Of a stretch of DNA of 64,000 bases, positions 27,493-41,263 are shown in pieces. The notes under the pieces are model-generated. The model was given only the letters and a program-made list of their open reading frames with translations, was not told the DNA's origin and made no database searches. The first letter of the stretch is position 1; each line of letters opens with the position of its first letter. This DNA is from a phage. The translations under genes and the position numbers were made by a program. Location: sequence record NC_103192.1. The stretch is one strand, 5' to 3'.

Positions 27493-27917
27493 TGAGCACA
27501 CGCCCTCGTTTAGTGGATTGGCAAGAAAGATTGTGGAAAGTGTTTGACGAAGAGGCCACCATACCTTTTGAATGGGGATTCCACGATTGCTGCACCTTTG
27601 CAGCTAAGTGTGTTGATGCCCAATACGGAACAGATTTTCTTTCTAACTTCGAAGGAACGTATAAAACAGAGTTGGAAAGCAAAAGATGGTGCATGCTCCG
27701 TTTCAAAACCACACACCTGCCTACTATTTTTGATCTCTTTATGACTCGACTAGATACTCCTAAACAGGTTCAGCGTGGCGATATTGTTATCTTCGAGGGT
27801 CTGAACGGGCTCACCGCTGGTGTGTTCTGGAACAACCAGATTTGGGCGAAAGGTGATAAAGGGGTCTTTATGTTCGATATGAAAGATTCTATCGTTGTTG
27901 ATGTCTGGAGGTATTAA
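27492..27917 (+). CDS. NlpC/P60-like tail protein (gpK-like)
   Basis: 141 aa; Cys motif WGFHDCCTFAAKC and later GDIVIF...G resemble the papain-like NlpC/P60 catalytic core; ATG 27492 with GGGAGG RBS. Confidence 0.45.
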   Translation: MSTRPRLVDWQERLWKVFDEEATIPFEWGFHDCCTFAAKCVDAQYGTDFLSNFEGTYKTELESKRWCMLRFKTTHLPTIFDLFMTRLDTPKQVQRGDIVIFEGLNGLTAGVFWNNQIWAKGDKGVFMFDMKDSIVVDVWRY

Positions 27918-30900
27918 TGCCAATTGCAATGATTGATAACATCGTTGCTTCTGCAAGATCTTCAAGTTATGACTGGAACGCATCCAAGGCAGCTCTGGCT
28001 GACAGCCTGAACACTGTTACCACCAGAACTCTGGATAAGATTTTCGAAGGAAACAAATCTTACAGGAGTCAGCAAGATAGACAAAAACTTCTCAGATCTT
28101 CTGCTGCACCTTGCTCTGTAGTGTATGGGAAGACACGCACATCTGGGTTGCTTGCGTTTTTGGAGCAGGACAGGGACAGAACCCTTCATTGTGCTATTGT
28201 TCTTGCCAATCATCCCTTGGAAGGTATAGAAGATATACTTATCGACGGTAATCCTATTTCTTCGTATGGCGATTTGGTATCGTGGGAGTTACATACCGAC
28301 AGGAAAACCTCTGATCCTTTCATGGGCACACACTGCCCTTCATGGTCACCAGACATGATAGGCAGAGGGATCAGTTGGCTACGTGCCAGCTTCAAGTTTG
28401 ACCCTAACAAGTTTCCTTTTGGGTTGCCAAACGTTACACTTGTCAAGGTTGGTAAAAAATGCTATGATCCTCGTATCAGTAAAGAGGTGTATACCAATAA
28501 CGCGGCCTTGGTGATCCTAGACTATTTAAGAACGTACCTCAAATGTCCTGACGAAACCATTAACTGGGAGTCCTTCAAGGAGGCTGCCAACATATGCGAC
28601 GAGGCGGTAAAAAACGCTGACGGAACCAGTGAGCGACGTTACACCATTAACGGTGAGTTTGACATGGATGAGGCCCCAGCAAGCATTATGGCAGAAATGC
28701 TGAAAGCTTGTGGTGCAGATCTCAGCTATGTAGCTGGTAAGTATGGTTTGCTGGTTGGTGCATACTATGGCCCGGCAACAATGACACTGAGTGAGGATTG
28801 TGTCTGTGGTGAGGTCAAGATCTATCCGGAAGCCTCATTTGACAAAAGATCCAACACAATAACTGGCAGATTCACCAGTCCTACCAAAGGGTATTCTGAA
28901 ACAGATTTTCCATCAGTGTTTGTCCCAGAGTGGATAGAGAAGGATGGAGAAAGAAAGATAATCGATATAGACTATCGCTTTGTTACCAGCCCTTATCAAG
29001 CTCAGCGTGTTTCTGCAATCTTCTTAAGACGTGCCAGAGCTGGCAGGATTATTGAAGTCACCTGCAATATGCGAGGTTTTAAATTTAAGCCTGGCCGTTA
29101 TGTTACAATGGACCTCCCAAGTATTGGTATAGTGGGCCAAGAAATGAGGGTTCTTGAATGGGAGTTTACCAAAAAGGGTGGTGTCAAGGTAAAACTCCGT
29201 CAAGATGCTAAAGAGTGGAATGATGCCACAGGGCAACTTCCGGATTCTGGCGATGTAGATATTCCGATATCTCCATCTGGTGTAGCTCAACCGCAAAACT
29301 TCAGATATTCCGTTCTCCAAGCTGGAGAAGTAACTCACGGTGTTTTGGCTTGGGACAACGTTGGGACCTACGCTCAAAATATTGTGCAGGTAAGAAAGAA
29401 CGGAGAGATTGTTTGGACAGCACAAACAGTTGAGCAGTTTGTCCGAGTAGAAGGCTTGACCAAAGGGTCATACACAGCAACCGTGGTTGCAACATCTTAT
29501 AAAGGTGGCGTATCTCCGGAAGCATATTGTGAGTTCAACATTCAGGCACCTGAAGCTCCTGTTTCTGTAGAGGTTAAGCAAGGATACTTTGCTATCACCT
29601 TGATTCCGCATAGTAGGGATTTAGCAAGTGTTAGCACTCAGTACGACTTTTGGACATCTGGGATGACAAGATTGCCAGATACCAGTGATGCAACCGTTAC
29701 TTCAAAAGCCACCCGCATGGGTGTTGGTTCAACTTGGACATCTGAAGGTCTGCAGAACGATAAGATTTATTATTGGTATATTCGAACCACAAATGCTTTT
29801 GGTAGTTCTCAGTTTGTAGAGTGTGCTGCACGCTGCTATACCTCCATTGAAGATTTGATGCCTCAGATAGATGCTGAATTTAAAAAGACAGAAACTTATA
29901 AAGAGTTGATGAGCACTTTAGATTCCTCTATTGAAGAGGTTGAAAATCGTGTCACAGAACTTAACAAGTACATGGACGGAAGGGTAGATGAGGCATTCCA
30001 ACAACTTGGGGATAGGATAGGTGCTGTAGTTACAGAGACAACTCAGAAGTTTGAGGATGTCAATGGCAATATTACAGCGCTGGATAAGAAACTTGTTGCT
30101 GCACAGAACAAGTTCACCAACGATCTGAACACTGAAAGTGGAAGACTGGCATCCCTGATTGAGACAACCAATAAAGCAACCACTGATCTTCTGAACAAAA
30201 AGACAGAGGCTTTAGACGAGAAATTGGTTGCAGCCAAAGGGGAGTTGGTAGAACAAATAGGTGGAGTGGAGAGCGGATACCTTGCCGGAGATAAAACTCT
30301 GGATGGCAAGATCAATACCCAGAGAACAGAACTTGACGCAAGCATCTTGAGCACCAATAAGGCGACAGTGGATCTTCTTAACAGGACCTCTGAAACTCTG
30401 GATCAAAAGATCAGTCAGACAAACGCGACGGTATCTAAGAACTATACCACCCTTGACGGTAAGATAACTACCGCAAAAACTGATCTCAATACCTTGATTG
30501 CCAATACCAACAAGGCTACCACAGATTTGTTGAATCAGAAAACCTCTGCACTGTCAGAGCAGATAACTTCTGCACGTGGGGAGATTTCTACCAACAAACA
30601 GGCGATTAAGGATTTGGATGGGAAGCTGACCTCCACAAAAACAGCACTGGACGCTACAATCTCCGATACCAACAAAGCAACTGTGGATCTTATTAACGGC
30701 ACAGCGTCAGCTATTCGTCAAGAACTTGCTGTTGCTAAGCAGGAGATCATTAATGATGTTGGGGATGTATCAGAGCTAAGAGCTGCAGTGGCTACAACAT
30801 CTAAGGCTGTGACCGACTTAGAGGGCAAAGTAAATGCTCAATGGGGCACAAAAATACAGGTAGACTCCGCAGGGAATAAGTATGTGGCAGGTATCCAATT

Positions 30901-31756
30901 GGGCATGGAAGGCTCTGGAGGCCAAGTTCAATCATACTTCATGGTTAGTGCAAACAACTTTGCGGTATACAACCCCGGAAATGGAACAGCAACCCTTGCT
31001 TTCGCAATCAAGAACAACCAAGCGTTCTTGAAAGATGCTTTTATAGAGAACGGGACGATCTCTTCTGCCAAGATTGCACAAGAAATTTCGTCAAACAACT
31101 ACGATGGCAACGGGTACCATAAATACGGTCGGTATATTAACAAGAACGGGCACGCCCAGTTTATGGATGTGTGGGTGAAAGGTAATATCAACGCTAGTGC
31201 AGGTAACTTCACAGGGGCAGTTAACGCCACCAGTGGTACCTTCCGTGGAGATGTTTATGCCAATAATGGTAGCTTTAGAGGCACCATAGATGCAACAGGA
31301 GGTACATTCCGTGGACGTGTAGAAGCTTCCGTTATCCGTGCTAACCAGTTCGAAGGTGCAATCGTTGCACATAGGACCTATGGTGACTGCCCTCCGGTAT
31401 ATAACTCGCAGCAGAGGGTTTGCCGTTGGAGGTGGAGATATGTGGACAACGTGCAAGGCCAAGGTAAAAACGTAACATTCTTCTTTAAACTGAACGGTAC
31501 TCGTGCCAACTCTCAACTAAATGCGTGGATAGCTGGTCACCAATTACTTGCTGGCAAGAAGTACGGAAACGATAACGATGGCATGTGTGCAGTTGGGATA
31601 ACAGGTCTAGGTGAACAAACTATAGACATTATTATCGAGATTTACACACCATGGTCAACAGGGAACGTGACAGGCATTACAATATCTTGTCCTACAGTCG
31701 TTGTAAGTCGTTCTAACTCAAGTTTCCAAGGTCCTTGGAATGAGTCTCACGACTAA
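27917..31756 (+). CDS. lambda-J-like central tail fibre / host specificity protein (Phage-tail_3 domain)
   Basis: 1279 aa; N-terminal region (SVVYGKTRTSGLLAFLE...LHCAIVLANHPLEGIEDILIDGNPI...GRYVTMDLPSIGIVGQEMRVLEWEF) matches the gpJ-type domain pattern; central tandem coiled-coil repeats; Gly-rich C-terminus. Confidence 0.65.
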   Translation: MPIAMIDNIVASARSSSYDWNASKAALADSLNTVTTRTLDKIFEGNKSYRSQQDRQKLLRSSAAPCSVVYGKTRTSGLLAFLEQDRDRTLHCAIVLANHPLEGIEDILIDGNPISSYGDLVSWELHTDRKTSDPFMGTHCPSWSPDMIGRGISWLRASFKFDPNKFPFGLPNVTLVKVGKKCYDPRISKEVYTNNAALVILDYLRTYLKCPDETINWESFKEAANICDEAVKNADGTSERRYTINGEFDMDEAPASIMAEMLKACGADLSYVAGKYGLLVGAYYGPATMTLSEDCVCGEVKIYPEASFDKRSNTITGRFTSPTKGYSETDFPSVFVPEWIEKDGERKIIDIDYRFVTSPYQAQRVSAIFLRRARAGRIIEVTCNMRGFKFKPGRYVTMDLPSIGIVGQEMRVLEWEFTKKGGVKVKLRQDAKEWNDATGQLPDSGDVDIPISPSGVAQPQNFRYSVLQAGEVTHGVLAWDNVGTYAQNIVQVRKNGEIVWTAQTVEQFVRVEGLTKGSYTATVVATSYKGGVSPEAYCEFNIQAPEAPVSVEVKQGYFAITLIPHSRDLASVSTQYDFWTSGMTRLPDTSDATVTSKATRMGVGSTWTSEGLQNDKIYYWYIRTTNAFGSSQFVECAARCYTSIEDLMPQIDAEFKKTETYKELMSTLDSSIEEVENRVTELNKYMDGRVDEAFQQLGDRIGAVVTETTQKFEDVNGNITALDKKLVAAQNKFTNDLNTESGRLASLIETTNKATTDLLNKKTEALDEKLVAAKGELVEQIGGVESGYLAGDKTLDGKINTQRTELDASILSTNKATVDLLNRTSETLDQKISQTNATVSKNYTTLDGKITTAKTDLNTLIANTNKATTDLLNQKTSALSEQITSARGEISTNKQAIKDLDGKLTSTKTALDATISDTNKATVDLINGTASAIRQELAVAKQEIINDVGDVSELRAAVATTSKAVTDLEGKVNAQWGTKIQVDSAGNKYVAGIQLGMEGSGGQVQSYFMVSANNFAVYNPGNGTATLAFAIKNNQAFLKDAFIENGTISSAKIAQEISSNNYDGNGYHKYGRYINKNGHAQFMDVWVKGNINASAGNFTGAVNATSGTFRGDVYANNGSFRGTIDATGGTFRGRVEASVIRANQFEGAIVAHRTYGDCPPVYNSQQRVCRWRWRYVDNVQGQGKNVTFFFKLNGTRANSQLNAWIAGHQLLAGKKYGNDNDGMCAVGITGLGEQTIDIIIEIYTPWSTGNVTGITISCPTVVVSRSNSSFQGPWNESHD
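30064..30790 (+). repeat. tandem ~50-aa coiled-coil repeats inside the J-like gene
   Basis: repeated unit ...LDGKI.T.KT.L...I..TNKAT.DLLN... at least four times at protein level, with correspondingly similar DNA units. Confidence 0.5.
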
Positions 31757-31798: not shown

Positions 31799-31827
31799 TT
31801 GACTATTGTTACAAAATTTGGTAAAAT
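31799..31827 (+). promoter_or_regulatory. promoter TTGACT-17-TGgTAAAAT
   Basis: -35 at 31799-31804, extended -10 at 31819-31827. Confidence 0.6.
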
Positions 31828-31860
31828 ACCTTGTAGAGATTTTCATACCGGAGGAGTGAC

Positions 31861-33351
31861 GTGGCTAAGTATGGATTGACAGAGGCTGGTTTCGTTATAC
31901 CAACCCTAAATGACCTAATCGTTGAAACTAAGCAAAGCCTGATCCGTGCTTTTGGCGAAAACTTCAACGTACAGAGTAACTCCGTTGCAGATAAGCTGAC
32001 CACTATCTTCAACGAGCGAGAGTATCAACTTATTCTTATGGCAGCATCTGTATACGCATCGCAGACGCTGTATGGGGCAGAAGGTATTTACCTGGATGAG
32101 CTTCTTGGAAGACAGGGTATTTACCGAAGAGGCCGTTCTAAATCATCAGGTACCTGCCAGTTGACAATCAACACAACTGTGCCGTACAATATGATTTATG
32201 ATTCCAAAACTTATACGCTGGACAGTGGCAACTTTGTTCTTAGCAACGATGTGCAAGTAGCAGGGAATCTTATTGCTCACAGAATAAATGCTCCAGACCT
32301 AAGGATTGGGAAATACAACTTTCAAATTACCAACCAGACAGATGGAAGCATCAAAACAAAAAGTCTGGTTTTAACCGATAAGTCTCTGGACTCTTCTGAT
32401 TTACCAAGCTTTTACGGCGAGATTAAGCAATTCATTGTAGATAATACAACCCTGTTGAACGACGATTTGATTCAGATCGATATGTTGACAGGAACGTTGT
32501 GGATAGGATACAATTCGAATCTTGATCAAGTTGGGCTTAATAGCAGAGTAGATTTCAGAGTATCCCCGATTGTAGGTGAAAGAACTATCACCCTAGATGT
32601 TATCGCTAACGAGGCTGGTGAGCTGTCAAGAGAGGCAGAAACCGTGACAACAATGTCGCCTACTCCCAGCGGATTTATCAAGCTTACCAACCGAGAAAGA
32701 TTCAATGAGGGCAGGGATGTTGAGAAGGACTCAGAGTATCGCTTAAGAGCTTCCAGCACTAAACAGTTGACATCTAAAGCTACCCGTCCTGCAATCCTTA
32801 GCGCTGTAAGCGAGGTGAAAGGTGTTGAGAAAGTAAGAGTGTTCTCTAACAACACCGATAAAACGGATGCGAAAGGTATACCACCTTATAAGTTTCAAGT
32901 GGTGGTGTTTGGTGGTGCAACAGAGGATATCTGTCAGGCGCTGTATCAAACCATAGCTTGCACAAACAGAACTTATGGGAATATCTTCTACGATATTACC
33001 ACATCAGACGGTCAAACTGAAAGGATTTATTACTCCAAGGCAAATACCTACCGCCTAGATGTAAGAATTACCTACTCAGGTGCTGCGCTTTCCACAACCG
33101 AAAAAGATGCCATTACAGAGGCTCTTTTGCAGGTTGTTAACGGCTTGGATGTTGCCGATACGTTGTACAATATCCAATTGGTCGGTGCTGCATCAGCTGC
33201 TGTGTCAATAGGCAGATTTAACAGACTGGTAATTCAAGTTAAACCTGTTGGAGCCTCTGATGAAGCTTACACTACAAACGATATTGTTGCGAACATGACC
33301 GAGGTGTTTGACCTCGATGAAAGTAATATAACTTTCCAACAAACTATTTAA
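31861..33351 (+). CDS. baseplate J-like protein (gp6/gpJ family)
   Basis: 496 aa, GTG start with GGAGGAG RBS; N-terminal pattern (...GFVIPTLNDLIVETK...GAEGIYLDELLGRQGIYRRG...) recalled as baseplate-J-like. Confidence 0.5.
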   Translation: MAKYGLTEAGFVIPTLNDLIVETKQSLIRAFGENFNVQSNSVADKLTTIFNEREYQLILMAASVYASQTLYGAEGIYLDELLGRQGIYRRGRSKSSGTCQLTINTTVPYNMIYDSKTYTLDSGNFVLSNDVQVAGNLIAHRINAPDLRIGKYNFQITNQTDGSIKTKSLVLTDKSLDSSDLPSFYGEIKQFIVDNTTLLNDDLIQIDMLTGTLWIGYNSNLDQVGLNSRVDFRVSPIVGERTITLDVIANEAGELSREAETVTTMSPTPSGFIKLTNRERFNEGRDVEKDSEYRLRASSTKQLTSKATRPAILSAVSEVKGVEKVRVFSNNTDKTDAKGIPPYKFQVVVFGGATEDICQALYQTIACTNRTYGNIFYDITTSDGQTERIYYSKANTYRLDVRITYSGAALSTTEKDAITEALLQVVNGLDVADTLYNIQLVGAASAAVSIGRFNRLVIQVKPVGASDEAYTTNDIVANMTEVFDLDESNITFQQTI

Positions 33352-33362
33352 GGCGGCGGGAT

Positions 33363-34049
33363 ATGGCAGAGATTAAGTCGGATGTTAACCACATCCACAC
33401 TCTGCCAGATTTTGTTCAGGGGGGTCTTGATTACCTCCCTGGGGATTTTCTGGCTGAGAAGGTTAATTTAGTCACATTCTTAACCGTATACCTTAAAAGG
33501 TTGGAGAATGTTGATAAAATGCTGGTAGGCTTGGCTGAAGGAAGATTGCTTAACAATGCCAGCGGGAGATACCTTGACGAAGTTGGTAATCAACTTGGTA
33601 TTCTTAGGAATGGTCTTTCAGACGCGGATTTTCGTGCTACGCTGATTATTCAGCAGGCAGCATCATCAAGAGGTGGTACTCGCGAAGATGTCATCTCCAC
33701 CTTGCGACAATTGTTCGGAAGAGACAATTTCGATACGTGGAAAGGTGACAACTTTAGATTTGACATAAATATTAGAAAAACTTGCTTCGACATATTACAG
33801 TCCATCGATCAGATCTTAGATATGCTGCCATTGCCTTGTCATTTGCGTCTTACAGAATCGCAAGGGCAAGCTTTTGGTTTTGAAGGAGACTCTACAGCTC
33901 TTGGCTTCGGATCAGTGTGGGAAGAAAACCAGTTCGGAGTTGGTGGGCTGGCTACTTTGCTGTATGTTCCTGACGTAAGACCTGATTGGGACACCACAAC
34001 TATTTATTGTGAAAGTATTACAGTAAACGCAACTAGACAGGAGGGTTAA
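33363..34049 (+). CDS. putative baseplate wedge protein (gpI-like)
   Basis: 228 aa, immediately downstream of the J-like baseplate gene; synteny only. Confidence 0.4.
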   Translation: MAEIKSDVNHIHTLPDFVQGGLDYLPGDFLAEKVNLVTFLTVYLKRLENVDKMLVGLAEGRLLNNASGRYLDEVGNQLGILRNGLSDADFRATLIIQQAASSRGGTREDVISTLRQLFGRDNFDTWKGDNFRFDINIRKTCFDILQSIDQILDMLPLPCHLRLTESQGQAFGFEGDSTALGFGSVWEENQFGVGGLATLLYVPDVRPDWDTTTIYCESITVNATRQEG

Positions 34050-36121
34050 TGGCAACAGCTGTTTTTAAACCTTACCGTGATTACTCTACGATGGCTGCAC
34101 GGTTTCATTACCGCACAGTTCAGGATACTGCAGTTCCAGGTAGGGATTATGATCATGTTGAGGGAGATGTAACTATCCCGGTTGGAGCAACCAGTATTGA
34201 GATCCCTGTAGAAATTGTTGACAAATTGCCAAACAGGTTGCCAAGAAGCTTCTTTATGGAGTTTTCATCAAACTCCCAAGGGGTTATGATTGGAACACAA
34301 AGAGCGAAATGTACAATAGTTTCAGATGAGAATCTTGACAGAATATCTTGGGATACCGTTGAGGAGAGAATGTTTCACCCAAGATATTGGGTTACAACCA
34401 CACAGCAGACTGAAAGCACCTGCATTGTTGCGGATAATAACTGCTGTATTAACCGTTTAGTGTCAAGAACATATGGAGGCATGGCTGGGTGCATTTGGGA
34501 AACAGTTGACAAGTATGACCATTTCGGCATTGGATTTGATGATCACTACGAGATGAGAAACACCAAGCTTTGGTTCAGAATGTCAATAACCAATGCCAGC
34601 AACTTCTCCACCCCTGAAAAGATGATTATGACTGTAGACCTTGTTGACGGCACAATCATCTATGTTCCTTTAGCTCAATATGCTGTCAGCATCTCAGAGG
34701 ATAAGAATGTTGCAGAAATTCATATTGATTTCGAGGACTGCGTCGGGATGGACCAGAACAACAATATGATGGGTGTTGATCCTCGGCAGGTGAGAAAGAT
34801 TTTAATACCGCTTATGCCTAAAGATTGGGTAAGTAATAGCACAGACCCAAGAACGGAAAATGTAGAGTGCGAGTTGCGTCTAGATCTGCTTCAGCCGGAC
34901 ACAGGCTGGAAAATGATGCAACTTAACAATATCCAGGTGAAAGAGCACGACGTCGGGATCTGCACAGCATATGACGATATGTGGAACGTATCCCCTTTAA
35001 GGGTGTTGAGCAATATCAAGCGTCTGGGCTATACCGGAACCATAAATCATTATGTTGGTATGAGTCATTATTATGACTACACATGGTCAGGAACCCAATG
35101 GTCTATAAACAAAACAGGGGCTCTAAACGCTGCAGCTTATAAATGGCATGATGATTTTATGTACAATGCCAAACGACATGACTTCGACGTTATGCAGTCT
35201 GTAAGCTTCGAGCTTTATAGCGATGCCTGTCCGTTGGAATGGACCCAGAGAGACTGGAACGATAACTACGCTAAAACAGGATATACACCTTGTAGCTACC
35301 TCCTGTCTCCAACCATTGAAGAGGGTATGAATTTCCTTACTGCAGTATTTAAGAATTTTGCATCAGCCGCTATGAGAAACAACCTGCCAGTGATTATGCA
35401 GGTTGGTGAACCGTGGTGGTGGTACAATACCGATACTCGTAGACCTTGTATTTATGATTACCCTACAAAGCAGGCGTTTTATGATGAGACAGGTGAGTAT
35501 GCATTAGATATTGGGACTATTGACGATCCTAAAACTGGTGGTGTTTACGACAAGTATGTAGCATTTTGTCGTGGTAAGCTTGGCGCTCGTATTGCGGCTA
35601 TTTCAAAGGCAATAAAAGCACACGCTGCATCGGCTCAGATGACAGCTTTACTGTTTTTCCCCACTATTATGGAAACCGAGCTTACGCAAAAACTGAACCT
35701 TGCTGACCAATATAAAAAGGAAGCAGGCGCTCTTGATTTCTTCTGCACTGAGTGCTACGATTGGGTGATGCAGGGAGGTATTGAAAAGGCAAAAGAGTCT
35801 GTAAACATACCTATCGTTAAGTTAGGTTGGAAACCGTCTGAAATACAATACCTTGCAGGGTTCGTTCCTAGCAAAGAGCTTGCTCCGGTATATGGCTACG
35901 ACCCAACCAGGAATTACCAAGAATTTTTATGGAGATGTATTTGCGGAAACATGGCAACCATAGAGTATAGATACCCTGAGGTAAAACAGTATGTGTGGGC
36001 ATACCCGCAAGTAATGTCTGACAGCATCACTGTTACCGCCAGAGATTCTACCGTGCTTCATATGGGACAGGTTGCTCTGAAAGGGTATGTAGAAGATGTT
36101 GTCCCGCCAGACTTCTCATAA
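34049..36121 (+). CDS. tail fibre/spike protein with N-terminal Calx-beta-like domain
   Basis: 690 aa; residues ~15-95 (FHYRTVQDTAVPGRDYDHVEGDVTIPVGATSIEIPVEIVDK) fit the Calx-beta pattern; Trp/Tyr-rich C-terminal body. Confidence 0.5.
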   Translation: MATAVFKPYRDYSTMAARFHYRTVQDTAVPGRDYDHVEGDVTIPVGATSIEIPVEIVDKLPNRLPRSFFMEFSSNSQGVMIGTQRAKCTIVSDENLDRISWDTVEERMFHPRYWVTTTQQTESTCIVADNNCCINRLVSRTYGGMAGCIWETVDKYDHFGIGFDDHYEMRNTKLWFRMSITNASNFSTPEKMIMTVDLVDGTIIYVPLAQYAVSISEDKNVAEIHIDFEDCVGMDQNNNMMGVDPRQVRKILIPLMPKDWVSNSTDPRTENVECELRLDLLQPDTGWKMMQLNNIQVKEHDVGICTAYDDMWNVSPLRVLSNIKRLGYTGTINHYVGMSHYYDYTWSGTQWSINKTGALNAAAYKWHDDFMYNAKRHDFDVMQSVSFELYSDACPLEWTQRDWNDNYAKTGYTPCSYLLSPTIEEGMNFLTAVFKNFASAAMRNNLPVIMQVGEPWWWYNTDTRRPCIYDYPTKQAFYDETGEYALDIGTIDDPKTGGVYDKYVAFCRGKLGARIAAISKAIKAHAASAQMTALLFFPTIMETELTQKLNLADQYKKEAGALDFFCTECYDWVMQGGIEKAKESVNIPIVKLGWKPSEIQYLAGFVPSKELAPVYGYDPTRNYQEFLWRCICGNMATIEYRYPEVKQYVWAYPQVMSDSITVTARDSTVLHMGQVALKGYVEDVVPPDFS

Positions 36122-36133
36122 TCAGGAGATAAA

Positions 36134-37174
36134 ATGTCAAAACCTAGTTTTCCATTAGAGATTTGGGCAGAGGAGGATCAGGTTCTGCCTAACACCCACA
36201 GACAGAACAGGCTACGCCCGATTGATGATTTGTGGAGAAAAGGTTGGGATCTTGGTCAAAAGCCATCCTGTGAAGAACTTAACTATATTTTCAATATGCT
36301 CGGGACTTGGGCAAAATACATTGCTGACGAGCAGATCCCCGCTCAAGAAGGCCGTTATCTGGTACGTGATAATAACTTGAGTGATCTTTTGAACATCCCT
36401 GTTGCCCGTAGAAACCTTGGTATTATTACTAAGGAAGAGGCAGACGCCAGGTATGTGAAAGTTGCAGGTGATACAATGACAGGCCCATTGGGTTTGCAAC
36501 GTATCAACTTTAAAGCTGCCGATACAGATAAGGCTTGGATAGAGACAACTATTGGCCCAGATAAGACAACCCTTGACTTTGGGTTAAGTGATAATATTGG
36601 GGCGTTCGATGATGGTGGCACATCTACAGTAGATGCGTTCCGTTGGAGATTCCAGCCAACTCAGCCGGACATTAACCCAGAGTTCACTCTGATGTACCTG
36701 AACGCAATCACGGCTAATCGTGCGTTGTTGAAAGTGGTGGGCAATGTTGAAGTTGTTGATAACATGCGATGTAATAACCTCACCATTAGCAGCACAGCAA
36801 CATTCACCAACTGCAATGTAGCTAGTCAGTTGACGGCTGGGTCAGTATATGTCAATGGTGGTGCAAGTTGTGACAGTATGGTTGTAAGAAGCCAGCATTG
36901 TGTTGTCGGTAACAGAAATGTGGTGCGCTCTGTGAATGGAGTGACGGCTAACGGCAACGGAGATGTAACGATCACCATCCCGCAGACAGGTGTACAGGAT
37001 ATCAGAATCGGTGCAAGACTTGTTGACGGTGTTTCTGAATCTCCGGTTCGCAACGGTTATGTTGTCACAGGTTGGCATTTTGGTGATAAAAAAGAGATGC
37101 GTGGTTCAACCTACTGGGCAGGACCTTTACAAAAACTTGTAAATGGTCAATGGATCACTGTTAATTATGCGTAG
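36134..37174 (+). CDS. tail fibre protein, paralogue A
   Basis: 346 aa; contains GDTMTGPL fibre motif; ends ...YWAGPLQKLVNGQWITVNYA; paralogous along its whole length to the 38189 gene product. Confidence 0.6.
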   Translation: MSKPSFPLEIWAEEDQVLPNTHRQNRLRPIDDLWRKGWDLGQKPSCEELNYIFNMLGTWAKYIADEQIPAQEGRYLVRDNNLSDLLNIPVARRNLGIITKEEADARYVKVAGDTMTGPLGLQRINFKAADTDKAWIETTIGPDKTTLDFGLSDNIGAFDDGGTSTVDAFRWRFQPTQPDINPEFTLMYLNAITANRALLKVVGNVEVVDNMRCNNLTISSTATFTNCNVASQLTAGSVYVNGGASCDSMVVRSQHCVVGNRNVVRSVNGVTANGNGDVTITIPQTGVQDIRIGARLVDGVSESPVRNGYVVTGWHFGDKKEMRGSTYWAGPLQKLVNGQWITVNYA

Positions 37175-37188
37175 ATCGGAGGACTAGC

Positions 37189-37773
37189 ATGAAAATACTT
37201 CAAGAGTTTAAACTTTACCAGCCGGGATCTGGCGAATACTACACCAACAAGGAGACCAAGGAGCTGACTCCTCAGGAGGTTGAGGATTACACAGCATACA
37301 CTGGATATTTTTTACGTAATGATGATGGCGATTGGTATGTGCAATCACGAACACTGCGACAAGAAAATCCAGGCTGTATCTTCCTACTTGTTGACGAGAA
37401 GGGTATTCTTAAGACATCTACAGAAGAACCTGATGCCTTGTGGCCTGCTCCAGGTCTTCGTGTGGTTATCGCCAAAAAAGAAGAGGTACCAGAAAACATT
37501 ATGCTCCACCACGACGCTTTGCGTTTAGTTGGTGATGAATTTGTCACAGACAATGAATTCTTTGTTCAACAGGCAGAGGGTGTCATAGAGACAGAACTTG
37601 CTTGGGCTACTGCTAGAATTGGTGCCTATCAAGACATGATTGACCTTGAATACGATCTTACTGATGACCAAAAACGCAACATCAGAGATTTGAAAATGTA
37701 CAGGGTAAAACTTCTTGAAATAGATACATCTAAAGCCCCTGACATTTTCTTCCCGGAACGACCTACCCTCTAA
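37189..37773 (+). CDS. tail fibre assembly chaperone (Tfa-like)
   Basis: 194 aa; C-terminal ...AWATARIGAYQDMIDLEYDLTDDQKRNIRDLKMYRVKLLEIDTSKAPDIFFPERP fits the conserved Tfa C-terminal pattern. Confidence 0.55.
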   Translation: MKILQEFKLYQPGSGEYYTNKETKELTPQEVEDYTAYTGYFLRNDDGDWYVQSRTLRQENPGCIFLLVDEKGILKTSTEEPDALWPAPGLRVVIAKKEEVPENIMLHHDALRLVGDEFVTDNEFFVQQAEGVIETELAWATARIGAYQDMIDLEYDLTDDQKRNIRDLKMYRVKLLEIDTSKAPDIFFPERPTL

Positions 37774-37784
37774 GAGGAGGTGTT

Positions 37785-38099
37785 GTGGAGTTGGATTTGG
37801 CGGCATTGTACGGTATCTGCATGGGTACCGTTGTCCCGATCTGTGTATGGGCTTTCAACCAGTGGCACACCAAATGGAAAGGCATTTCCAAGAGGTTGGA
37901 TGAACTGGAGAAAGACCTCATCTTAGTGAAAAACAGTATGGTTACAAAAGATAAACTTGATTCCGTTATAGAGACCCGGTTAAGCAAGCTAGAGGCCGAT
38001 ATTAACGACCTTAAGCAGGATGTCAGGACAGATGTCTCCGGTATCCGAGCCGATGTACAAAAGATTTTGCACATGCTCGTAGAGCATAGTAAAAGGTAA
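37785..38099 (+). CDS. small membrane-anchored coiled-coil protein (spanin-like?)
   Basis: 104 aa; N-terminal hydrophobic helix then heptad-like region; GTG start 4 nt after GAGGAGG. Confidence 0.4.
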   Translation: MELDLAALYGICMGTVVPICVWAFNQWHTKWKGISKRLDELEKDLILVKNSMVTKDKLDSVIETRLSKLEADINDLKQDVRTDVSGIRADVQKILHMLVEHSKR

Positions 38100-38108
38100 A
38101 CAAAGGTC

Positions 38109-38141
38109 AGAACGGAAAGGACTCCGTTCTTGCATTTTGTT
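38109..38141 (+). terminator. hairpin AGAACGGA-AAGGAC-TCCGTTCT + TGCATTTTGTT
   Basis: 8-bp stem; U-tract overlaps the next promoter's -35. Confidence 0.5.
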
Positions 38142-38158
38142 CCCTAAAGTGTTAAAAT
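38130..38158 (+). promoter_or_regulatory. promoter TTGCAT-17-TGtTAAAAT
   Basis: -35 at 38130-38135, extended -10 at 38150-38158. Confidence 0.55.
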
Positions 38159-38188
38159 AGTCCTAAGGAATTTTCTCAGGAGAACGTG

Positions 38189-39232
38189 ATGACTAAACCA
38201 GTTATCCCTCTTGATATTTGGGCCAATCAGGATGTTGTGCTTGAAAATACGGGAGAGTTGAATAAGTCTCAACCAAAAAAAGAAGAGAGATTGAAAGGTT
38301 GGGATATGACACAAAGAGTGGCATGTGAAGTTGTTAACTTTGAACTTCACATGCTTTCTGCGTGGTTAAAGCATTTAACAGAAGATGTTGTCCCAGGATG
38401 GGATAATAGATTCTTAAGGGTCACTAATAATCTAGCAGACGTTCCAGACAAAGCTGCTGCACGTCAAGTTCTCAATGTATACTCGCCTGAAGAAATGGAT
38501 GACCTTTATGTTGACAAGACTGGAGACACAATGATCCAGACTCAAACTTTAGGTCTTCAAAGAATTGAGTTTGCATCTGCGTCAACAGACAATGCGGCGA
38601 TATACACCACCATAACTCCAGACAAGACGATGATGGATTTCTGGATTATGGACAACATTGGTGGCGCTGACGGCACAGACCTTGATGATCCTTCTCACCA
38701 AATAGACGGTTTCCGTTGGAGATTTCAACCTTCTGGTGGGCAGCCTGTGTTTTCGGCTATGAAGCTCAATGCTATAACTGCCAACCGTGCAAGACTGGCT
38801 ATCCAAGGAAATCTTGAATGCAATGATGCAAAAAGCTCCTCTGCAAATGCCAATGCGGTAACGATACCAAGAGCCACTGTTAATGGACAACAATCCTGCG
38901 GCAGCGCTCAAATAGGTGGAAGAGTAGATTGTAACGATAAAACCGCCAGGGGTCAATATGCAACAGTTGGTGGAAGAAACGTGGTCCGCAGGGTAAATGG
39001 TAGTAGCGCAGATAGCAGTGGTAACCTTACCATCCCTATGCCTAGTAGAGGTGTTGAGGATGTAAGGATAGCAAACCGTTTCAGAACCACCTACAGAGAA
39101 TCGAGAGTATACCCTGGGCATGTAATGTGCTCCGGCAATTACGCCTATAAACACCCGTATCAGGGCGACTATTGGACTGGTGCTATTCAAAAATTTGTAA
39201 ACGGTCAATGGATCACTATATCTTATGCTTAA
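38189..39232 (+). CDS. tail fibre protein, paralogue B
   Basis: ATG 38189 (MTKPVIPLDIW, parallel to MSKPSFPLEIW of paralogue A); GDTMIQTQTLGLQRIEF motif; ends ...YWTGAIQKFVNGQWITISYA. Confidence 0.6.
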   Translation: MTKPVIPLDIWANQDVVLENTGELNKSQPKKEERLKGWDMTQRVACEVVNFELHMLSAWLKHLTEDVVPGWDNRFLRVTNNLADVPDKAAARQVLNVYSPEEMDDLYVDKTGDTMIQTQTLGLQRIEFASASTDNAAIYTTITPDKTMMDFWIMDNIGGADGTDLDDPSHQIDGFRWRFQPSGGQPVFSAMKLNAITANRARLAIQGNLECNDAKSSSANANAVTIPRATVNGQQSCGSAQIGGRVDCNDKTARGQYATVGGRNVVRRVNGSSADSSGNLTIPMPSRGVEDVRIANRFRTTYRESRVYPGHVMCSGNYAYKHPYQGDYWTGAIQKFVNGQWITISYA

Positions 39233-39241
39233 AGAGGGTAA

Positions 39242-39508
39242 ATGAAATTAACTCAGTTTTTATGGGGACTGGTTGCAGCATCTGATGACCCTACAAAAGT
39301 GTCCCAATCTAAGCTATGGTCAAACATAGGCATGGCAGTGATGACTGGGGTGTTTATTCATATGGGGTATAATGATACGCTTCCTGAATGGTATGCGTGG
39401 ATATACGCACCTTCGGTAGCTTGCCCCCAGCTTATTAGCAAATTCATCTCGCTCCGGTGGGGTTGCCAACACCCTGACCACGTTAAAAACGAAGAGCAAA
39501 AAGCTTAA
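39242..39508 (+). CDS. small membrane protein (holin-like or exclusion-like)
   Basis: 88 aa with two predicted hydrophobic helices; strong RBS. Confidence 0.4.
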   Translation: MKLTQFLWGLVAASDDPTKVSQSKLWSNIGMAVMTGVFIHMGYNDTLPEWYAWIYAPSVACPQLISKFISLRWGCQHPDHVKNEEQKA

Positions 39509-39517
39509 GGAGAAATC

Positions 39518-41263
39518 ATGGCGCAAGACATGACAAGCTTCGAGCAGGCGGTAGATCAAGTAATTGTTGATTCTGAACGTTTGCACTTGATTGTCAACGG
39601 TAACGCTGTGGATGAAGTTGTCGTAGAGGATGGGACCACTATCCCTACGGTACGAAAAGCCATGCTTGACACCCTTTATTTTAAAACGCCGCCGATCCCT
39701 TGGGCGTATGGTGCATCCACAACAGTTTTTAACCAGTTGTATGAGTTTAAAGGAGATACGGGCACTCAGTGGTGGTACGCCCCAGCAGCATCAAAATCTA
39801 ACCCAGTTAGGATGCCAGCAGATCCTTCAGAATCTCCGAACTGGAGATTATATACCGATTCTGCAGTAATGGCAAAATACTACGCAAAACTTAACAGTCC
39901 AAGGTTCGAAGGTGACCCGAGAGTACCTACACCTCCAATGGACGATAAGTCCGAGTCTATAGCAAACACAGAGTTTGTTGTTGACTATGTGGATAGTATA
40001 TTCAAAGCCATGGAGGGGATGAAAGTAACTGTAGGGTCTTTGGTGGTAAAAGGTCTTACAGAACTTGCTAACACCATAGTTGGTGGCACCCTTACCTTGC
40101 ACGGGCCTGTTAATGGAGCGGATTCTACTGCACGCTTCAGGAACCTAATCCTTACTGCAAATACTTCTACATTGACTTTTGCGTGGAGCGATCCTAAGCA
40201 TGCAGACTGGAGAAGCACAGAGCTGCAACCTCATGAAGTATCCACCCACAGAGTTATAGCTGACACTATAACTTCTGGGAAACCAGTGGCTAATAACAAC
40301 GATGTGCATTTTGATGGTCTAGGTAATAACTTTTTTGACTACGTGTACATTCGTGGTAATGCCATGAAGGCAGCCACCGAACCGACATTGCAGGTTGATG
40401 GGACCACTAGGGTTAAGAACCTTGAGGTGACAGGCACCGTTACAGGGATAACCTACTCTGTAGATGGCACCATGATCTACCCTAGCTATATTGAAAGCAC
40501 GGGAGATGCACTGATCAATGGAGATTTAGAGGTTGGCGGGTCTGTAGTCATTCGTGGCACAGCATCTGTCCAGAACATATCTTTAAATACTCTGAGGGTG
40601 AATGAGCGTGCCACTTTTGAAGGAGAGGGGCTTACAGCCAACAAAGGTGTAATTACCGAGCTGACAACCACCACTCTAACTGCAACAACTGCAAACTCTG
40701 AAAACTGCAACGTTACCAGAAACTTGCAGGTAAATGGAGATGTTAGTTTAAACACAGCAGGGACGGGCACTACCCACCTTCACAACCTTGAAATATCAGG
40801 TACAGTGACTGGGTGGCTGCCAGACTTCTCTAATGTCAACTTTGTCTGTAATGGCATTAACTCCAGTGGCAAGATAACCACCTCTCAAGAAATTGAAGCT
40901 GGTAAAACTATTACTGCCCCTGCTTTCCATGCAGGGAAGGTGGAGTTTGACTTAGAGGAGGCTGACGCATCTAGTGGGACATGGACACCTAACGGGCAGG
41001 CCAATATGTATGTTGTCCACGCGAAAGGGGATTTTACAATAGGGCAATGGCCTGGAACATCGGCTGAAGATAAACCTTACCCGTTCACTGCAATCATCTA
41101 TGTCATTCAGGATGCTGTAGGCCACAACGTGACCTTACACGATAAATATGCCATACTGTCGGCTACTCCTGTTATTAACAACAAAGCCAACAGTGTCACC
41201 TTGCTACAATTGACATATTGTGGTGTTGGTGATATTGTGGATGTGGTTATTGCACAACGTTAA
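39518..41263 (+). CDS. tail fibre protein with beta-helical repeats
   Basis: 581 aa; repeated NLEVTGTVTG / NLEISGTVTG type motifs typical of fibre shafts. Confidence 0.5.
   Translation: MAQDMTSFEQAVDQVIVDSERLHLIVNGNAVDEVVVEDGTTIPTVRKAMLDTLYFKTPPIPWAYGASTTVFNQLYEFKGDTGTQWWYAPAASKSNPVRMPADPSESPNWRLYTDSAVMAKYYAKLNSPRFEGDPRVPTPPMDDKSESIANTEFVVDYVDSIFKAMEGMKVTVGSLVVKGLTELANTIVGGTLTLHGPVNGADSTARFRNLILTANTSTLTFAWSDPKHADWRSTELQPHEVSTHRVIADTITSGKPVANNNDVHFDGLGNNFFDYVYIRGNAMKAATEPTLQVDGTTRVKNLEVTGTVTGITYSVDGTMIYPSYIESTGDALINGDLEVGGSVVIRGTASVQNISLNTLRVNERATFEGEGLTANKGVITELTTTTLTATTANSENCNVTRNLQVNGDVSLNTAGTGTTHLHNLEISGTVTGWLPDFSNVNFVCNGINSSGKITTSQEIEAGKTITAPAFHAGKVEFDLEEADASSGTWTPNGQANMYVVHAKGDFTIGQWPGTSAEDKPYPFTAIIYVIQDAVGHNVTLHDKYAILSATPVINNKANSVTLLQLTYCGVGDIVDVVIAQR

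Follow-up and report, generated by a model that had tools for sequence, protein, structure and literature searches.

The window analysed here is a 64,000-nucleotide stretch of phage DNA (NC_103192.1). It shares 97-98% DNA identity with the Vequintavirus genomes of phages B9-1 and FV3 and, judged by its sequence, is a Vequintavirus, i.e. an rV5/FV3-like myovirus of E. coli. The features described below all lie on the plus strand. The locus opens with a Baseplate_J-like baseplate wedge protein (31861-33351; PF04865, E 2e-9; phrog_6), a homolog of rV5 gp36 and phi92 gp145. By analogy, this wedge protein is the expected docking platform of the short tail fibres, as in phi92 the C-terminal domain of gp145 carries fibre III (gp147; PMC13450770). 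A second baseplate protein (33363-34049; rV5 gp35, phi92 gp146 homolog) was recognized from phrog_4056 (E 2e-103) and synteny. It is followed by p690 (34049-36121; rV5 gp34), a 690-aa lateral fibre/sheath-like protein with matches to PF23845 TIM-barrel_NCTSP (E 1e-79), PF23844, and Calx-beta. In Vequintavirus, p690 is an insertion that separates the baseplate protein gene from the first short tail fibre; it is missing from that position in Seunavirus and Mydovirus.

Five genes follow, all with the ORF positions given in the original prediction: short tail fibre paralogue A (36134-37174; 346 aa, rV5 gp33 orthologue), the tail fibre assembly chaperone Tfa (37189-37773; 194 aa, rV5 gp32), p104 (37785-38099; rV5 gp31), short tail fibre paralogue B (38189-39232; 347 aa, rV5 gp30 orthologue), which is a genus-specific extra copy, and p88 (39242-39508; rV5 gp29). 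The 581-aa lateral tail fibre p581 (39518-41263; rV5 gp28, phrog_4549) lies next. The order p690, A, Tfa, p104, B, p88, p581 is the same in rV5, MaxTheCat, 366V, pangalan, and IMG/VR contigs, and a scan of IMG/VR yielded only five loci, every one a close relative. The annotation of the BASEL phage MaxTheCat labels two of the genes "short tail fiber protein" and one "tail fiber chaperone."

Fibres A and B match the published short tail fibre pair, rV5 gp33 and gp30, as orthologues by sequence: A is 98.3% identical to gp33, and B is 96-100% identical to gp30 orthologues (about 96% to the rV5 type and 100% to the B9-1 copy). The rV5 proteins share 42.3% identity with each other; gp30, gp32, and gp33 were detected by mass spectrometry (MS) in rV5 virions, and two LPS chemotypes were proposed for the pair (Kropinski 2013, PMC3606486). 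We searched the rV5 MS supplement for gp29-gp33 peptides and found no match in that file, which seems limited to major proteins. Two paralogous short tail fibres with a chaperone have also been described in BASEL Vequintavirinae, without allelic variation, and as homologous to the single fibre of phi92-like phages and to Mu GpS/GpU (Maffei 2021, PMC8594841). Across rV5 gp33/gp32/gp31/gp30/gp29 and the BASEL pair, this is the same locus (96-98% protein identity, same order, same predicted promoter P030), and nothing substantive differs in the window, whose copy is nearest to B9-1 and FV3. Records named "rV5_ev" might suggest experimentally evolved rV5; we rejected this, as they differ from rV5 by ~2% across the whole locus and are natural relatives. 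The paired fibres are therefore real, yet already known and ordinary. Because the pair, the Mu S/U homology, the virion presence, and the promoter are all in print, the yield of the genome scan itself is small; our comparative additions are modest and concern the variable slot occupied by fibre B, the co-variation of Tfa with tip class, and the tip of B as a diverged member of the A class.

Two diverged but conserved fibre paralogues

The claim that A and B are paralogous end to end is borne out by BLASTP over their full lengths (43% identity, 58% positives, E 4e-95), far beyond chance, and each matches phrog_4465 end to end. The GDTM motif is found in both, as originally predicted, and both carry a C-terminal NGQWIT(V/I)(N/S)YA. 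The C-termini had been called near-identical; they are similar, with 14 of the last 20 residues matching, but fall short of that description. Likewise, the central segments had been said to differ, which holds for the shaft (residues 206-255, 23% identity) but not for the mid region (111-205), which is the most alike part of the two proteins (59%). They are least alike in the N-terminal domain (38%), in the shaft, and in the tip loop (42% over 293-346). The predicted length of 346 aa is right for A, while the 348 aa given for B corresponds to a form that begins at a GTG at 38186. The ATG at 38189, which gives 347 aa, is the better start, since a ribosome binding site (AGGAG, 38178-38182) lies 6 nt upstream and the GTG is GCG in rV5 and 366V.

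The original prediction had raised the case that one copy is an assembly artefact. This is ruled out, as the DNA of A and B is almost unrelated: an alignment covers just the last 63 nt (78%), and the two share no exact word longer than 15 nt. A recent duplication is rejected on the same grounds. Strong purifying selection acts on all five genes (dN/dS 0.01-0.07; A 0.027, p104 0.029, B 0.067, p88 0.010), and A and B are both functional genes. Both are nearly invariant across the genus, with 8 and 23 variable positions in the two fibres. The fibre is found in two places in about 116-118 Vequintavirus records and in one place elsewhere, and the duplication is fixed in Vequintavirus. As to whether B arose as an in-lineage duplicate of A, a neighbor-joining tree gave bootstrap values <50%, and the signals from the N-terminal domain and the mid region conflict.

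Fibre domains and a single chaperone

By homology, A and B each have an N-terminal baseplate-docking domain and a Mu GpS-type C-terminal tip. Fibre A matches the N-terminus of a short tail fibre in the PDB (9cuy, E 2e-19) and the C-terminus of Mu S (E 2.5e-6). The family profile strengthens both matches, to E 3e-27 for the N-terminus against the solved virion short tail fibre and to E 1.9e-11 for Mu S (5yvq; positions 274-336 against S 435-502). A phmmer search with fibre B alone gave no match to Mu S, though A and B are homologous over their full lengths. Besides the tip, fibre A shares with Mu GpS-type fibres an adjacent Caudo_TAP chaperone gene. The tip of A is 57% identical to those of PVP-SE1 and phi92 gp147, and the best match of the B tip outside the genus is 43%. 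Since the B tip scores ~52 bits against A-class tips and 17-28 bits against other classes, we classify it, on these scores, as a diverged, genus-specific member of the A tip class. Its loop reads CSGNYAYKHPYQGD where the A class has TGWxFGDKKE(L/M)RG. Fibre B also has a diverged N-terminal motif, in which the conserved PI(D/A/S)DLW is lost.

That paralogue A is followed by a Tfa-like chaperone proved correct (PF02413 Caudo_TAP, E 1e-11; phrog_136, E 1e-36), and this applies to A only: Tfa is the sole such chaperone gene in the locus, and B lacks one. The C-terminal domain of Tfa co-varies with fibre tip class. Because the tips of A and B fall in one class, albeit with B diverged, one Tfa plausibly serves both fibres.

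Phage Mu S/S' and U/U' (PDB 5yvq, 9ki1, 8ju3) have the homologous tip, the shaft motif GDT(L/M), and a Caudo_TAP chaperone next to the fibre gene. In Mu, however, inversion of the G segment switches between two tips, with a separate chaperone for each, whereas in the window both fibre genes are complete, lie on one strand, and are expressed, and there is one chaperone. We rejected a Mu-like invertible switch, as A and B are on the same strand and there are no long inverted repeats; the inverted repeats at the locus are two short and imperfect ones (17-18 nt, 78-82% complementary). T4 gp12 has an analogous role in the literature: it binds the LPS core, makes adsorption irreversible, and reorients as contraction proceeds. 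The T4 short tail fibre has a different chaperone, gp57A. No T4 gp12 chain is among the PDB matches of the fibres at E <= 0.1 to 1, and the published gp12 likeness is one of HHpred domain similarity only (Kropinski 2013, PMC3606486).

Phi92 gp147 (fibre III) and its chaperone gp148 form an orthologous module that follows the wedge genes; the tip falls in the fibre A class and Tfa matches, but phi92 has only one fibre, in which both the N-terminal region and the shaft have diverged strongly (about 20-29% identity). The phi92 fibre has been assigned to six trimers that lie below the wedge and change orientation upon contraction (PMC13450770).

Membrane-protein genes and transcription units

The small membrane-anchored protein predicted after Tfa is confirmed: p104 (104 aa, phrog_5345) has a clear N-terminal transmembrane (TM) anchor, where hydropathy peaks at 1.9 (residues 5-23), and its C-terminal part is helical and resembles a coiled coil. 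The other, p88 (88 aa, phrog_1322), is a small, very conserved hydrophobic protein that PHROGs labels only as "membrane protein." It had been predicted to be a two-helix membrane protein; we found two weakly hydrophobic segments only, and a two-helix topology is plausible. Neither of these nor the protein found between them in relatives (gene X, below) had a match above threshold in Pfam or NCBIfam, and for p104 and p88 this includes holin and superinfection-exclusion families. We considered p104 as the i-spanin of a two-component spanin, as the TM and helical architecture is present, and rejected it: it matches no spanin family in these searches, it is followed by fibre B here and by a ~4-TM protein in relatives rather than by a lipoprotein o-spanin, and the spanins assigned in LL12, gp66 and gp65, are encoded elsewhere.

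Homologs of p104 and p88 occur in 223 and 358 phage records, respectively, and both belong to the conserved core of the entire Vequintavirinae/phi92-like lineage. The single-fibre genera Seunavirus (PVP-SE1, 4MG), Mydovirus, and Henunavirus share with the window the wedge, baseplate protein, short tail fibre, Tfa, p104, p88, and next fibre, but have one fibre and no p690 before it. Their order is short tail fibre, Tfa, p104, X, p88, next fibre, with the p104 homolog directly after Tfa; X encodes a protein of 133-157 aa with ~4 TM segments (phrog_7451). Fibre B thus occupies the slot that X holds in the sister genera. In phi92, the p88 homolog gp144 lies upstream of the wedge gene, whereas p88 follows fibre B in the window. 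The original prediction had assigned A and B different downstream partners, but the single-fibre order, in which p104 and p88 are both present, ties them to neither paralogue. The two would then be part of a conserved module rather than partners of either fibre.

Between p104 and fibre B, a hairpin followed by a short T-rich run (38109-38130) gives a terminator-like match and is a candidate weak intrinsic terminator or attenuator ending the fibre A transcript. Its predicted RNA fold has a dG of -17.5 kcal/mol (z -3.5), and one compensatory change (A-U to C-G) is found in two relatives. It is followed by a promoter-like element of fibre B (38130-38159; TTGCAT-N17-TAAAAT with a TG extended -10) that includes the late motif TGTTAAAATA (38150-38159), invariant in 7 phages. 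The element is identical save for 1 nt in the spacer to the rV5 late promoter P030, which was predicted at the same site (Kropinski 2013, PMC3606486). Thus, the claim that B has its own promoter at 38130-38158 agrees with P030, but a sigma-70 scan did not call the element, as its -35 matches at only three of six positions. The proposed separate regulation of B fits the conserved hairpin and late-promoter-like element that precede it, as in the rV5 prediction. Across the window, the late motif occurs more often than expected (18 matches against 5.6), and 16 of these matches are on the coding strand.

An exact match to the late-promoter-like motif, TGGTAAAATA (31819-31828), lies upstream of the wedge gene and corresponds to rV5 P036, which has the same core in rV5 Table S4; it is the likely start of the transcript carrying fibre A. 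Downstream, p88 and p581 follow B with 9-nt gaps, so that B, p88, and p581 are probably co-transcribed, and rV5 terminator t028 comes after gene 28 (Kropinski 2013, PMC3606486). Late transcription would then proceed in two units, the first running from the wedge gene through p228, p690, A, and Tfa to p104, and the second comprising B, p88, and p581.

Receptor role of the fibre pair

Altogether, we consider it probable that this Vequintavirus short tail fibre locus supplies two docked LPS-core fibres, folded by its one Tfa, and is transcribed in two late units. In this model, A and B would each assemble as a homotrimer docked on the baseplate wedge. Folding of both tips would fall to the single Tfa, as suggested by the shared tip class and by the C-terminal YWxGxxQKxVNGQWIT motif kept in B. 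Both fibres would bind the LPS core, making adsorption irreversible and triggering contraction, and the altered tip loop of B may confer a second, related core specificity or tolerance of core variants. According to published work, V5-like phages require an LPS core that extends to the first outer-core glucose, and LL12 depends on waaG/Glc I.

The original prediction suggested alternative or dual receptor specificity, an idea already put forward for the rV5 pair (Kropinski 2013, PMC3606486). Two observations pull in opposite directions on dual specificity: the tip loop of B is unlike that of A, but both fibres are almost without allelic variation, unlike fibres that determine host range. A second specificity is also not needed to account for the known data, since single-fibre phi92-like phages show the same LPS-core dependence. 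Recent receptor-mapping preprints contain nothing specific on the short tail fibre pair.

It is possible, if less likely, that A and B bind the same LPS-core epitope and that the duplication is structural or serves avidity, with the two fibres in geometrically different sets of baseplate positions, e.g. alternating wedges or up/down conformers. This would agree with the near-invariance of both fibres and with K-12 genetics, which point to a single LPS-core requirement common to single-fibre relatives (PMC7229145, PMC8594841). The docking domains also fit: they are 38% identical between A and B, compared with 56% and 49% to the PVP-SE1 orthologue, and the loss of PI(D/A/S)DLW in B would suit distinct docking sites or avoidance of mixed trimers. 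However, the B tip loop is clearly unlike the A/PVP-SE1/phi92 class, phi92 fills six sites with one fibre, and we saw nothing at the locus to supply a second docking site.

We think it improbable that B is mainly an adaptor in a branched fibre network, made with the co-transcribed p581, rather than a receptor binder. The tight block of B, p88, and p581 behind its own promoter would suit such a role, as would low-resolution cryo-EM of Vequintavirinae, in which fibre-connected densities are left without assignment (PMC12143355). Maps of the Bas49/Bas54 baseplates (EMD-51868 and EMD-51869) have resolutions of 7-9.5 A. Yet B retains the complete Mu S-type tip as well as the C-terminal motif that characterizes receptor-binding fibres, and p88 and the p581 homolog occur without any B in single-fibre genera. 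An assembly artefact or a decaying pseudogene can be dismissed for either copy, given the weak DNA similarity confined to 63 nt, ORFs of both A and B intact in >110 independent genomes, dN/dS values of 0.03 and 0.07, and detection of both fibres by MS in rV5 virions.

Returning to the favored model of two LPS-core fibres, a more specific joint reading can be offered, tentatively and with the odds against it. First, B would be a neofunctionalized, genus-specific fibre whose tip loop recognizes a different LPS core than A and whose N-terminal motif docks separately. Second, the p104/(X)/p88 set in the fibre operon could be the holin or lysis-timing module of V5-like phages (compare T4 gene t after gene 38) or a membrane-bound fibre-assembly factor.

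Vequintavirus phages are common in therapeutic and biocontrol cocktails, partly for their broad host range, and short tail fibres set the final, irreversible step of adsorption. Whether there are one or two LPS-core specificities bears on forecasting resistance routes and on host-range engineering. If the first part of the joint reading is true, every Vequintavirus particle would have two terminal-receptor specificities, folded by one chaperone.

The rV5 short tail fibre locus

The locus is confirmed as the known rV5 gp33/gp30 pair of short tail fibre (STF) genes. Five close-set genes on the + strand encode fibre A (36134-37174, 346 aa), a Tfa-type tail fibre assembly chaperone (37189-37773, 194 aa; PF02413, E 1e-11), the small protein p104 (37785-38099), fibre B (38189-39232, 347 aa counted from ATG), and finally the small protein p88 (39242-39508). 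Their rV5 counterparts are, in order, gp33, gp32, gp31, gp30, and gp29. In BASEL phage MaxTheCat, the first and fourth of these genes carry the annotation "short tail fiber protein," the second is called "tail fiber chaperone," and the other two are hypothetical. The only sizeable gap among the five is 38100-38188. Fibre B most likely starts at ATG 38189, because a ribosome binding site (AGGAG) lies at 38178-38182 and because the upstream GTG (38186) is GCG in rV5 and 366V.

A 7.5-kb stretch spanning the locus shares 97-98% identity with Escherichia phages B9-1, NHEP1, and FV3, and at least 95% with >100 Vequintavirus genomes. Between 16 and 21 "Campylobacter phage" GenBank records (MG0656xx series, host C. 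jejuni) likewise share at least 95% identity with E. coli Vequintavirus across the locus; wrong host labels or coliphage contamination is the probable cause. In phage vB_Eco_Alma (OV101294.1; 3001-4928 of locus L018), each of fibre A, Tfa, and p104 appears as shorter, split or truncated CDSs between intact neighbours, which looks like frameshift sequencing errors, not true gene decay. Elsewhere in the window, a 1279-aa tail protein (27917-31756; rV5 gp37 homologue) has in its centre a series of similar ~45-residue units in which a motif like L..TNKAT.DLLN..T..L...L recurs, suggesting an internally repeated coiled-coil rod. A 690-aa protein (34049-36121) has Calx-beta, NCTSP_N, and NCTSP TIM-barrel domains (N4 gp65-like); homologues are tied in the literature to N4 glycan receptor binding. 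In Vequintavirus, its gene separates the baseplate protein gene from fibre A, an arrangement not seen in Seunavirus/Mydovirus.

Kropinski et al. gave 42.3% identity for the rV5 pair, proposed that it serves two LPS chemotypes, and detected gp30, gp32, and gp33 in rV5 virions by mass spectrometry (PMC3606486). Maffei et al. 2021 described two paralogous short tail fibre proteins plus a chaperone in Vequintavirinae sensu stricto, homologous to the phi92-like single-fibre locus and Mu GpS/GpU, with the two paralogues lacking considerable allelic variation (PMC8594841). Given these publications, the find is real but already known, main hypothesis included.

Paralogy of the fibres and their chaperone

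The original prediction that the fibre genes are paralogous end to end holds: the alignment of A with B runs the whole length of both (43% identity, E 4e-95), and each matches phrog_4465 end to end. At the DNA level, they share only one 63-nt stretch (78% identity) and an exact word of 15 nt, which rules out both an assembly artefact and a recent duplication. By tblastn, two copies are present in ~116-118 Vequintavirus records, with a single copy in every other genus.

In the N-terminal domain, A is 56% identical to the PVP-SE1 orthologue and 38% to B, while B is nearer to PVP-SE1 (49%) than to A; the widely conserved N-terminal motif PI(D/A/S)DLW is missing from B. Over residues 111-205, A and B are mutually closest (59% vs 43-49%). 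The tip of A (293-346) clusters with those of PVP-SE1 and phi92 (57% each; 72% between those two), whereas the B tip reaches 34-43%. The tip loop TGWxFGDKKE(L/M)RG becomes CSGNYAYKHPYQGD in B, and no B-type tip was found in phages outside the genus (best match 43%). Neighbor-joining bootstrap did not settle the branching order. Among the Vequintavirus copies examined, the sole length variant is B of phage pangalan (3001-4035 of locus L017), which at 344 aa is 3 residues shorter.

Fibre A aligns through its first 108 residues with the N-terminal part of a "short tail fiber" from a solved virion structure (9cuy chain c, E 2e-19) and through its last 60 with protein S of the Mu tail fibre (5yvq, E 2.5e-6); fibre B searched alone gave only the N-terminal match. 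A profile of ten family members matched 9cuy (3e-27), Mu S (1.9e-11), and the S/S' chimera 8ju3 (7.7e-5). T4 gp12 was not among the matches in these searches. Unlike Mu, the locus has no invertible switch, which is ruled out because long inverted repeats are absent.

The Tfa C-terminal domain follows tip class, not taxonomy. A-class tips are common to the window, PVP-SE1, and phi92 (75-95 bits), and their Tfa C-termini are alike (58-69 bits); 4MG and FENT2, from the genus of PVP-SE1, differ in their tips, and their Tfa C-termini do not match. The B tip scores ~52 bits against A-class tips vs 17-28 bits against others and keeps the YWxGxxQKxVNGQWIT motif, from which we infer that a single Tfa could serve both fibres.

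The p104-p88 slot and its regulation

The earlier reading that A and B have different downstream partners does not hold: homologues of p104 (33% identity, E ~1e-19 by tblastn) and p88 (51-55%, E ~1e-27) are present in single-fibre relatives too. Every such relative compared, i.e., Seunavirus (PVP-SE1, 4MG, FENT2, EC152), Mydovirus (Mydo, AV124), and Henunavirus (Erwinia phage pEp_SNUABM_01), has the order baseplate wedge, baseplate protein, STF, Tfa, p104 homologue, gene X, p88 homologue, next fibre. Database records with homologues of p104 (223) and p88 (358) are all Vequintavirinae or phi92-like/Phapecoctavirus. Thus, p104 and p88 are lineage core genes, whatever the fibre number. Phi92 is arranged differently: its p88 homologue, gp144, is encoded upstream of the wedge gene, and gp149, which comes after the chaperone, is a weak homologue of p104.

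The slot between conserved p104 and p88 is variable, holding X in Seunavirus/Mydovirus/Henunavirus and fibre B in Vequintavirus. The X product (133-157 aa, phrog_7451) has about four transmembrane segments and no Pfam match. Gene X was not found in the window; fibre B lies in 38100-39232, where relatives' loci have the ~4-TM gene (L007:6497-6970, L008:6461-6934, L009:6419-6820, L011:6391-6792). In Vequintavirus, fibre B, a hairpin, and a promoter occupy the X slot.

Neither p104 nor p88 matched a Pfam or NCBIfam family above threshold. Conservation of p88 is exceptional, with at least 99% amino acid identity in 80 records. The LL12 announcement leaves the holin of V5-like phages without an assignment, so a lysis role for p104/p88 is still only speculation. 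An i-spanin role for p104 was rejected; in LL12, the i-spanin is assigned to another gene. Both p88 and p104 are small, conserved membrane proteins encoded within a late operon, which recalls T4 gene t after gene 38, though this is pure speculation.

The p104-B gap contains a hairpin (38109-38130; dG -17.5 kcal/mol, z -3.5) followed by a T-rich run and, 3' of it, TTGCAT-N17-TAAAAT with a TG extended -10, which falls outside sigma-70 consensus criteria. With up to one mismatch, the late motif TGGTAAAATA occurs 18 times in the window vs 5.6 expected, 16 of them on the + (coding) strand (e.g., 6993, 12157, 26309, 31819, 38150). The copy upstream of the wedge gene (31819) is rV5 P036, and that at 38150 is P030. 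Kropinski et al. reported a TggTAaAAtA motif upstream of late genes and list P030 as a putative late promoter (Table S4C), identical to 38136-38172 apart from one base (PMC3606486). The window's TGGTAAAATA copies fit this T4-late-like motif, although rV5 is not known to encode homologues of T4 gp33/gp45/gp55. The predicted separate promoter for B is upheld. It is the published putative P030 but for that base, and the motif is invariant in seven phages, among which the intergenic region is 95% conserved. The hairpin has one compensatory change (A-U to C-G). Together, the motif copies at 31819 and 38150, the conserved region, and the hairpin compensation support a putative division of late transcription into two units, one running from the wedge gene to p104 and the other comprising B, p88, and p581 (a lateral tail fibre gene).

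Variation and proposed receptor binding

Among Vequintaviruses, dN/dS is 0.027 for fibre A, 0.067 for fibre B, 0.056 for Tfa, 0.029 for p104, and 0.010 for p88; all five genes are clearly functional. Variable positions among 7-8 phages number 8/346 in A and 23/347 in B, and neither fibre acts like a hypervariable host-range determinant. The V5-like phage LL12 requires the LPS core as far as the first glucose of the outer core (waaG; PMC7229145). The phi92 short fibre (gp147), assigned to six trimers beneath the wedge that reorient on contraction, is a proposed mediator of irreversible binding (PMC13450770), and low-resolution cryo-EM of two Vequintavirinae has density for their Mu-like short fibre (PMC12143355). 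Dual specificity of A and B is an old hypothesis with evidence both ways. In the mechanism we propose, A and B would form two homotrimeric short fibres that bind the LPS core, both folded by one Tfa, and B would be a genus-specific extra copy with a tip of the same class as A.
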